Source: Octopus vulgaris
Taxonomy: Eukaryota
Assembly (NCBI GenBank): GCA_951406725.2
Contig: OX597837.1
Location: 19,964,001 to 20,028,000 of the forward strand
Direction of reading: 5' to 3'
Length of the DNA: 64,000 nt
The number at the start of each line of letters is the position of its first letter. The stretch's first letter is position 1. Shown here one piece after another: positions 34,031-34,394 of this stretch. Position numbers and translations under genes: made by a program. The notes beneath the pieces were generated by a model. It was not told the DNA's origin, made no database searches, and saw only the letters and a list, made by a program, of their open reading frames with translations.

Positions 34031-34394
34031 AATGTGAGGTATACTTGCCATCTCAAAATGGCTAACCACTAAGGGTGGGTGTTACTGTAGCTTTTAGCCC
34101 CAGGAGATCATCGCCTCCAGCTGGCTTTAGGCACACTTTCTGTGCCCTTATGGTATTTGCAAAGGGAGGTCACCCTTCCCTTGTCAAATGATGACAGGTC
34201 AAAACCTAGAAACTCCAGTCCGTGCGTATCACTTAGGTTGACGAGGGAAGGGTGACCTCCCTTTGTAAATACCATAAGGGCACAGAAAGTGTGCCTATAG
34301 CCAGCTAGAGGCGATGTTCCTCTGGGGCTACAAGCTACAGTAACACCCACCCTTAGTGGTTAGCCATATTGAGATGGCAAGTATACCTCACATT
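34031..34394. repeat. Fold-back (arms about 157 bp) with a truncated hammerhead motif in the 50-nt loop
   Basis: 34031-34187 is the reverse complement of 34238-34394 with few mismatches. The loop reads aTGATGA-CAGGT-CAAA-ACCTA-GAA-ACTCCAGT-C. Confidence 0.9.

Follow-up and report, generated by a model that had tools for sequence, protein, structure and literature searches.

A fold-back insertion with a truncated hammerhead

The window, that is the whole 64,000-nt stretch of Octopus vulgaris DNA that was analysed, contains at 34031-34438 a single insertion associated with a target-site duplication (TSD) of 11 bp. Its reverse-complementary arms, 34031-34187 and 34238-34394, are 94% alike over 157 nt (self-BLAST E 8e-127). 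The insertion belongs to a family of 355-nt repeat units, hereafter family A, in which positions are written u and in which outer ends were found at S1 (u353-355) or at S2 (u394-402), about 45 nt apart. In this copy S1 lies on the left and S2 on the right, with the following features:

34024..34034, + strand: left TSD, AATGAAGAATG, its final 4 nt overlapping the arm end
34031..34187, - strand: arm in inverted orientation, truncated at its 5' end and running from S1 on the outside (unit position 355) to u199 on the inside (L001 1344-1500, u355>199)
34188, no strand: junction base A at the family C3 position, either an untemplated base or a later substitution
34189..34394, + strand: direct arm, unit positions 150-355, reaching S1 (CACATT)
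34189..34226, + strand: truncated type I hammerhead (core, helices II and III, 3' strand of helix I), predicted cleavage after 34220
34395..34438, + strand: tail of 44 nt, the start of the next unit, ending at S2
34435..34445, + strand: right TSD, AATGAAGAATG

The 11-mer AATGAAGAATG occurs only twice in the whole window, at 34024 and 34435. The initial annotation had described a fold-back with a truncated hammerhead at 34031..34394, and both the arms and a core placed directly past 34187 were recovered; the end of the element had been set too early, since it runs to 34438, and the 11-bp TSD had been overlooked. Contigs from three runs of two studies (the kind of run being uncertain) bridge the left flank into the arm, and contig depth drops to background past 34439. 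No contig in those runs spans the whole insertion, and the right flank is without contig cover.

Past 34187, A34188 is followed by TGATGA (34189-34194) and then by helix II, in which AGGT pairs with ACCT while C34195.A34208 forms a mismatch at the base. On the 3' side of helix II come GAAA (34209-34212), ACTCCAGT (34212-34219), C34220 and CGTGC (34221-34225). Neither C3 nor the 5' strand of helix I is present, as had been claimed and as the letters at 34188-34226 bear out, and the ribozyme of this copy is predicted to be dead. An A at the C3 position was also found in one other copy, L030, whose 5' strand is otherwise present. Rfam returned 15 matches (hairpin-type and others) for 34150-34280, none of them to a hammerhead family, and no hammerhead among the 150 listed of 378 rows for the whole window; it is thus homologues and covariation that identify the motif as a hammerhead. 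In helix III a single change, G>C at 34215, separates this copy from the family sequence ACTGCAGT. The palindrome at 37564, to which attention had been drawn for its one-base difference, forms helix III of a hammerhead from an unrelated family, on the minus strand.

The palindromes of the window had been linked to hammerhead elements more generally. This link held for 37564, 28400-28948 and 23418-23678, whereas at 44756-44936 it was seen by eye only:

37363..37643, - strand: separate hammerhead repeat family, core from 37627, helix III ACTGCAGT at 37564-37571
28400-28948, both strands: fold-back of another hammerhead family, with the motif in each arm, core at 28835 (+) and at 28602 (-), the latter degenerate
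23418-23678: young tandem family with copies 97-99% alike, present here as a fold-back whose tail is confined to the left arm
44756-44936: fold-back from an older family, its copies 84-90% alike

The repeat at 37363-37643 is not homologous to the 355-nt unit (best match 11 nt, E 0.73); its core reads CTAACGA here and CTGACGA in most homologues, and the full hammerhead motif was found in 10/12 loci of its family. Across a (TA)n stretch it adjoins 37019-37312 (-), which is 88% like the 3' UTR of an autonomous Penelope-like element (PLE), L177. The fold-back at 28400-28948 carries a tail of about 90 nt on its left arm only, and the motif was found in 10/12 loci of that family. The family at 23418-23678 shows in L304 and L305 a U3:A8 hammerhead variant (T and A for C3 and G8), and such variants occur naturally. 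For 44756-44936, visual inspection picked out hammerhead-like words upstream in L316, L318 and L319, which the pattern scanner did not confirm. Elsewhere in the window, a complete hammerhead motif of a further family lies at 45806-45880 (+), and this family was seen in both orientations in L186. Inverted repeat pairs, 73-80% alike, were observed at 61419-62419 and 47279-47953, and we take them to be SINE-like. At 51534-53528 (-) and 38129-39837 there are fragments similar to the C-terminal region of a non-LTR retrotransposon ORF, as well as very long (ATT)n arrays with a duplicated flank.

Two repeat families and the pairing of their outer ends

In the genome (2.8 Gb, microsatellite-rich), the query 34188-34394 gave 2487 candidates, the best 40 of the 2487 being 94-96% identical. 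This first homologue search was biased to hammerhead-bearing copies, and a second set was therefore taken with a 21-mer from the 3' end of the unit, which has 321 exact matches in the genome and 0 in the control. In the same way, a hammerhead pattern search gave 451 matches against 1 in the control. The unit is 354-356 nt long in nine natural dimers, its GC content is 45% and the longest stop-free frame in a dimer is 84 aa. In the loci mapped, family A copies longer than one unit run into another unit and never into an ORF.

Homologues with GCACG-CTGATGA upstream had been anticipated. A complete hammerhead is indeed present, with helix I complete (at least 4 of 5 pairs) in 27/29 homologues and a CTGANGA core in 24/29, but the upstream helix I strand is GTACG in 23/29 and GCACG in 0/29. 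Over the 15 rows compared, 90% of cells were paired, a figure that is not a probability since the rows are related; three pairs changed on both sides, and slid controls gave 3-46%. In most family A copies, among them 12/12 family A rows of this comparison, helix II starts with C.A where a G-C pair would be expected, which counts against a ribozyme and may, judging from the motif, weaken self-cleavage of family A. MFE predictions did not return the hammerhead fold for isolated motifs.

A sister family, B, has a unit of 352 nt that is 77% alike to family A, with copies 98-99% alike and arms up to six units long. It carries G-C at the helix II base, and its helix III is swapped to ACTCGAGT with the palindrome retained. 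An expression look-up with a family B query listed no RNA dataset. On sequence grounds the element is a non-LTR retrozyme, that is a non-coding tandem repeat with a predicted hammerhead and Penelope-type insertions, of which the window locus is an ordinary dead copy. The initial annotation had preferred a ribozyme-bearing, Penelope-type retroelement to a MITE, and this view is upheld by helix I in 27/29 homologues and by arm lengths of 22-542 nt.

To describe the outer ends, 70 distinct loci were taken among the first 100 listed 21-mer matches of family A. L061 has two matches separated by 5.3 kb; it is a dimer that a LINE interrupts, and it was removed. The remaining 69 loci comprise 46 fold-backs, 22 single-armed copies and 1 other. 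Among the fold-backs, 35 pair S1 with S2, 1 is S1/S1, 0 are S2/S2 and 10 have an undefined end, so that S1/S2 pairing was observed in 35 of the 36 with both ends defined (binomial 5e-10 at p=0.5). Single-armed copies end at S1 in 13 cases and at S2 in 9. The 40 loci of family B include 18 fold-backs, 14 of them S1/S2 and 4 undefined, with no homotypic pair; 19 of its 22 single copies end at S1, yet its fold-backs pair S1/S2 in 14/14. In an autonomous family, PLE-G, the ends likewise fall at two points, spaced by about 50 nt, and short and long ends were paired in 4/4 head-to-head copies among 30 loci read by hand. Flanking direct repeats of 9-15 nt were found at 27/62 fold-backs of families A and B, and a further 13 have (TA)n on either side, a count made without a null and including some TA-rich strings.

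Insertion mechanism and its alternatives

We consider the locus, with a probability of about 0.7, to be one two-armed, 5'-truncated insertion of the 355-nt hammerhead repeat with an 11-bp TSD, likely made by a Penelope-type RT that used each nicked target strand to prime a cDNA of its own, the two fixed start sites on the RNA being separated by about 45 nt. Multimeric transcripts would be cut by the hammerhead, probably as a dimer via the palindromic helix III, and would probably be circularised. A GIY-YIG endonuclease would nick AT-rich DNA with a stagger of 11-15 nt, and of the two 3' ends of the nicked target one would prime at S1 and the other at S2. Both cDNAs would stop early and then join head to head, often via 2-11 nt of self-complementarity. 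In the window copy, one cDNA would have halted at u199 and the other at u150, in the hammerhead by chance.

The S1 arm extends further 5' than the S2 arm in 20/33 fold-backs and is therefore not a copy of it, and 4 S2 arms consist of tail only. Mean junction overlap is 3.2 nt against 1.3 in simulated blunt joins. Overlap of at least 2 nt is only modestly enriched (16/35 versus 27%, Fisher p 0.04) and inserted bases are present at 10/35 junctions, both of which count against twin priming. The inner ends of paired arms lie at most 30 nt apart in 18/35 (permutation p 0.0002). Of the non-CpG variants, 30% are common to the two arms of a locus, compared with 4.9% between loci, in a test that does not separate one RNA molecule, subfamily structure and gene conversion and in which four loci (L034, L028, L080, L003) supply 26 of 43 shared variants. 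Close inner ends and shared variants fit one shared template, and also hairpin copying or subfamily structure.

Biochemical work on a PLE protein provides a parallel. According to the available text of PMC11167929, this protein, a predicted dimer, cuts the two strands at ATT and then extends each of them; synthesis begins at two internal sites that delimit the tail, and hammerhead cleavage is not required. The same text reports no difference between strands in the start site in vitro, which counts against S1/S2 twin priming. PLE copies that have a neighbouring copy in inverse orientation, and a tail on one side only, are described in the accessible parts of PMC8557442 and PMC3846280, and the origin of Penelope inverted copies and one-sided tails is stated there (PMC8557442) and in PMC11167929 to be unresolved.

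The main rival to twin priming is the self-priming model proposed in the available part of PMC3846280: one cDNA would fold back or prime itself and be copied to a hairpin, one end of which an endonuclease would trim at S1, and a tail arising by endonuclease resolution is also suggested in the text available of PMC8557442. It would account for the head-to-head geometry, for palindromic junctions (L099 and L100 overlap on TTTGCAAA), for inner ends at most 30 nt apart (18/35) and for the variants shared between arms (30% against 4.9%). Nevertheless, it requires the S1 arm to be nested in the S2 arm, although the S1 arm reaches further 5' in 20/33; moreover 4 S2 arms are tail only, and an S1-primed cDNA would be unable to supply the tail. 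An antisense or circular template could relax these nesting and tail objections, and we regard the model as unlikely. Quite improbable in our view is that the unit is a pLTR that became detached from some autonomous Penelope element not found here, its copies being mostly 5'-truncated products of full-length RNA with no separate retrozyme RNA. Tail, inverted copy and TSD are standard in autonomous PLEs, and only the best 150 of 6136 GIY-YIG candidates were scored, but in the loci mapped copies of more than one unit continue into a unit and never into an ORF, and family B arms reach six units. A MITE or another TIR DNA transposon, or an assembly artefact, deserves practically no credence: inverted-repeat ends with a direct duplication outside speak for this reading, and against it stand arm lengths of 22-542 nt, freely variable inner ends, ends that differ by the tail, 22/69 single-armed copies, arms that are 94% alike, not identical, and the contigs of three runs and two studies that bridge the left flank into the arm.

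The initial annotation had suggested that reverse transcription may have switched template at the ribozyme structure. In the model examined here, the RT would stall or switch template at the hammerhead structure or cleavage site and so create the inversion. The direct arm of the window copy does begin at u150, one base inside the core, and 8 other inner ends, among 42 fold-backs, fall within u144-186; the other arm of the same copy stops at u199, outside the ribozyme. The enrichment of inversion breakpoints at the ribozyme that had been predicted was not observed. With each position weighted by the arms reaching it, inner ends in the hammerhead numbered 8/71 scorable ones against 7.7 expected in the 42 simple family A fold-backs, 5/57 against 6.0 in 35 clean copies (which omit L053, L067, L071, L088, L095, L102 and L024, four complex fold-backs being left out of both sets) and 3/36 against 4.6 in family B, samples that rule out a large enrichment at the ribozyme, not a small one. 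Within about 5 nt of the cleavage site, 2 ends were found against 2.4 expected in the 42, and 0/57 against 1.8 in the clean set, which counts against the template switch. The sole excess in family A lies at u215-260, a zone picked after the data were seen (28 against 15.1 expected; scan 43 of 5000 simulations) that holds the TTTGCAAA palindrome and a hairpin, and it was not repeated in single-armed copies (1 against 3.3) or in family B (4 against 4.7). Template switching at the ribozyme is therefore very improbable, and the breakpoint at the hammerhead core in the window copy is due to chance.

Returning to priming at two fixed sites by a Penelope-type RT, the enzyme itself was sought among PLEs. 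No autonomous element with a homologous pLTR was present among the GIY-YIG loci examined (L135-L192), and tblastn of a PLE ORF against the window gave no match. Unit-like matches in L173, L177 and L191 turned out to be separate insertions of diverged relatives, 62-80% alike and away from the ORF ends. An abundant young PLE family (L165-L172) has an open 781-aa RT and GIY-YIG frame, a second frame upstream and tandem repeats in its 3' UTR; it shares nothing with the 355-nt unit and was set aside. The PLE copy at L173 1821-4983, whose arms of 766 nt show 100% identity and of which one arm only bears a tail, is a very recent insertion.

At two loci, retrozyme arms are joined directly to the PLE-G 3' UTR, with the PLE-G terminus missing there: family A arms at L095/L193 (850-2790), found among the 69 loci, and family B arms at L216/L273 (4420-7657), the single case in 29 other PLE-G copies. 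From their sequences, these fusions are possibly template-switch chimeras made by a shared enzyme, and insertion plus deletion is also a possible source. PLE-G carries a CxxC linker, a feature associated in the available text of PMC8557442 with Neptune and Nematis. The PLE-G 3' UTR (L195-L223) bears a T3:A8 hammerhead variant with a palindromic helix III about 130 nt before the first terminus. As far as the accessible literature goes, the mover of animal retrozymes is inferred from co-occurrence and pLTR homology only. We tentatively propose, as a possible but rather doubtful joint reading, that Penelope integration is obligatory asymmetric twin priming and that a Neptune-like PLE-G mobilises retrozymes without shared sequence; on a single RNA molecule, in this case a small circle of retrozyme RNA, the two halves of an RT dimer would start from different fixed sites and would move together until the cDNAs anneal. 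That S1 and S2 are paired almost strictly, in two retrozyme families as well as in an autonomous one, gives a definite prediction for the in vitro system already established, and the short and numerous retrozyme copies yield countable insertion footprints.

Comparison with known systems

In the twin priming of L1 attributed to Ostertag and Kazazian, both target strands reportedly prime on the RNA and the cDNAs join by microhomology to give an inversion, the second primer being said to land at a variable internal site, with arms that do not overlap. Here, in contrast, neither start site varies, and as a rule the two arms duplicate one and the same stretch. No report of twin priming of retrozymes was found in the literature searched, which covers subscription journals little, and in the same literature cephalopods and retrozymes are mentioned together only in PMC8557442.

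Metazoan non-LTR retrozymes are described, in the accessible parts of the two main sources, as tandem non-coding units of 170-400 nt, or 350-390 in mussel (Cervera and de la Pena 2020, PMC7229834; Li, Clavereau and Pollet 2026, 10.64898/2026.07.22.740005). Judged against these parts, the octopus families are alike in their tandem non-coding unit, in a type I hammerhead motif per unit, in a GC content below 50%, in a long TSD (>4 bp) without LTR and in the co-occurrence of PLEs, by which mobilisation has been proposed. They differ in that copies are scattered, two-armed and for the most part shorter than a unit, with S1/S2 as their fixed ends, and, in family A, in that C.A takes the place of G-C in the basal pair of helix II; unlike in Xenopus retrozymes, no homologous pLTR was found here (L135-L192). 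Moreover, metazoan retrozymes are described as expressed in the form of linear and circular monomer RNA, whereas the material covered here comprises contig runs of uncertain kind. The term 'inverted' is absent from the available text of PMC7229834, and two-armed fixed-end structures are absent from the accessible main text of 10.64898/2026.07.22.740005, though the supplements of both papers may contain inverted copies. That retrozymes are non-autonomous PLE derivatives is already published in the latter, and a tail on only one inverted pLTR in the available texts of PMC8557442 and PMC3846280.

Endonuclease-bearing PLEs, as presented in the portions available of PMC3846280, PMC8557442, PMC11167929 and PMC4209133, resemble the present elements by an adjacent inverted 5'-truncated copy with a tail at one end, a TSD of about 8-15 bp, AT-rich or microsatellite targets, ATT at the end and a hammerhead with a palindromic helix III, which the accessible text of PMC4209133 describes for dimer-acting motifs. 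They differ in that here there is no RT or GIY-YIG ORF, the unit being repeated in tandem and not placed at the sides of an ORF, and the tail is 44-47 nt long here versus 30-40 in those PLEs.
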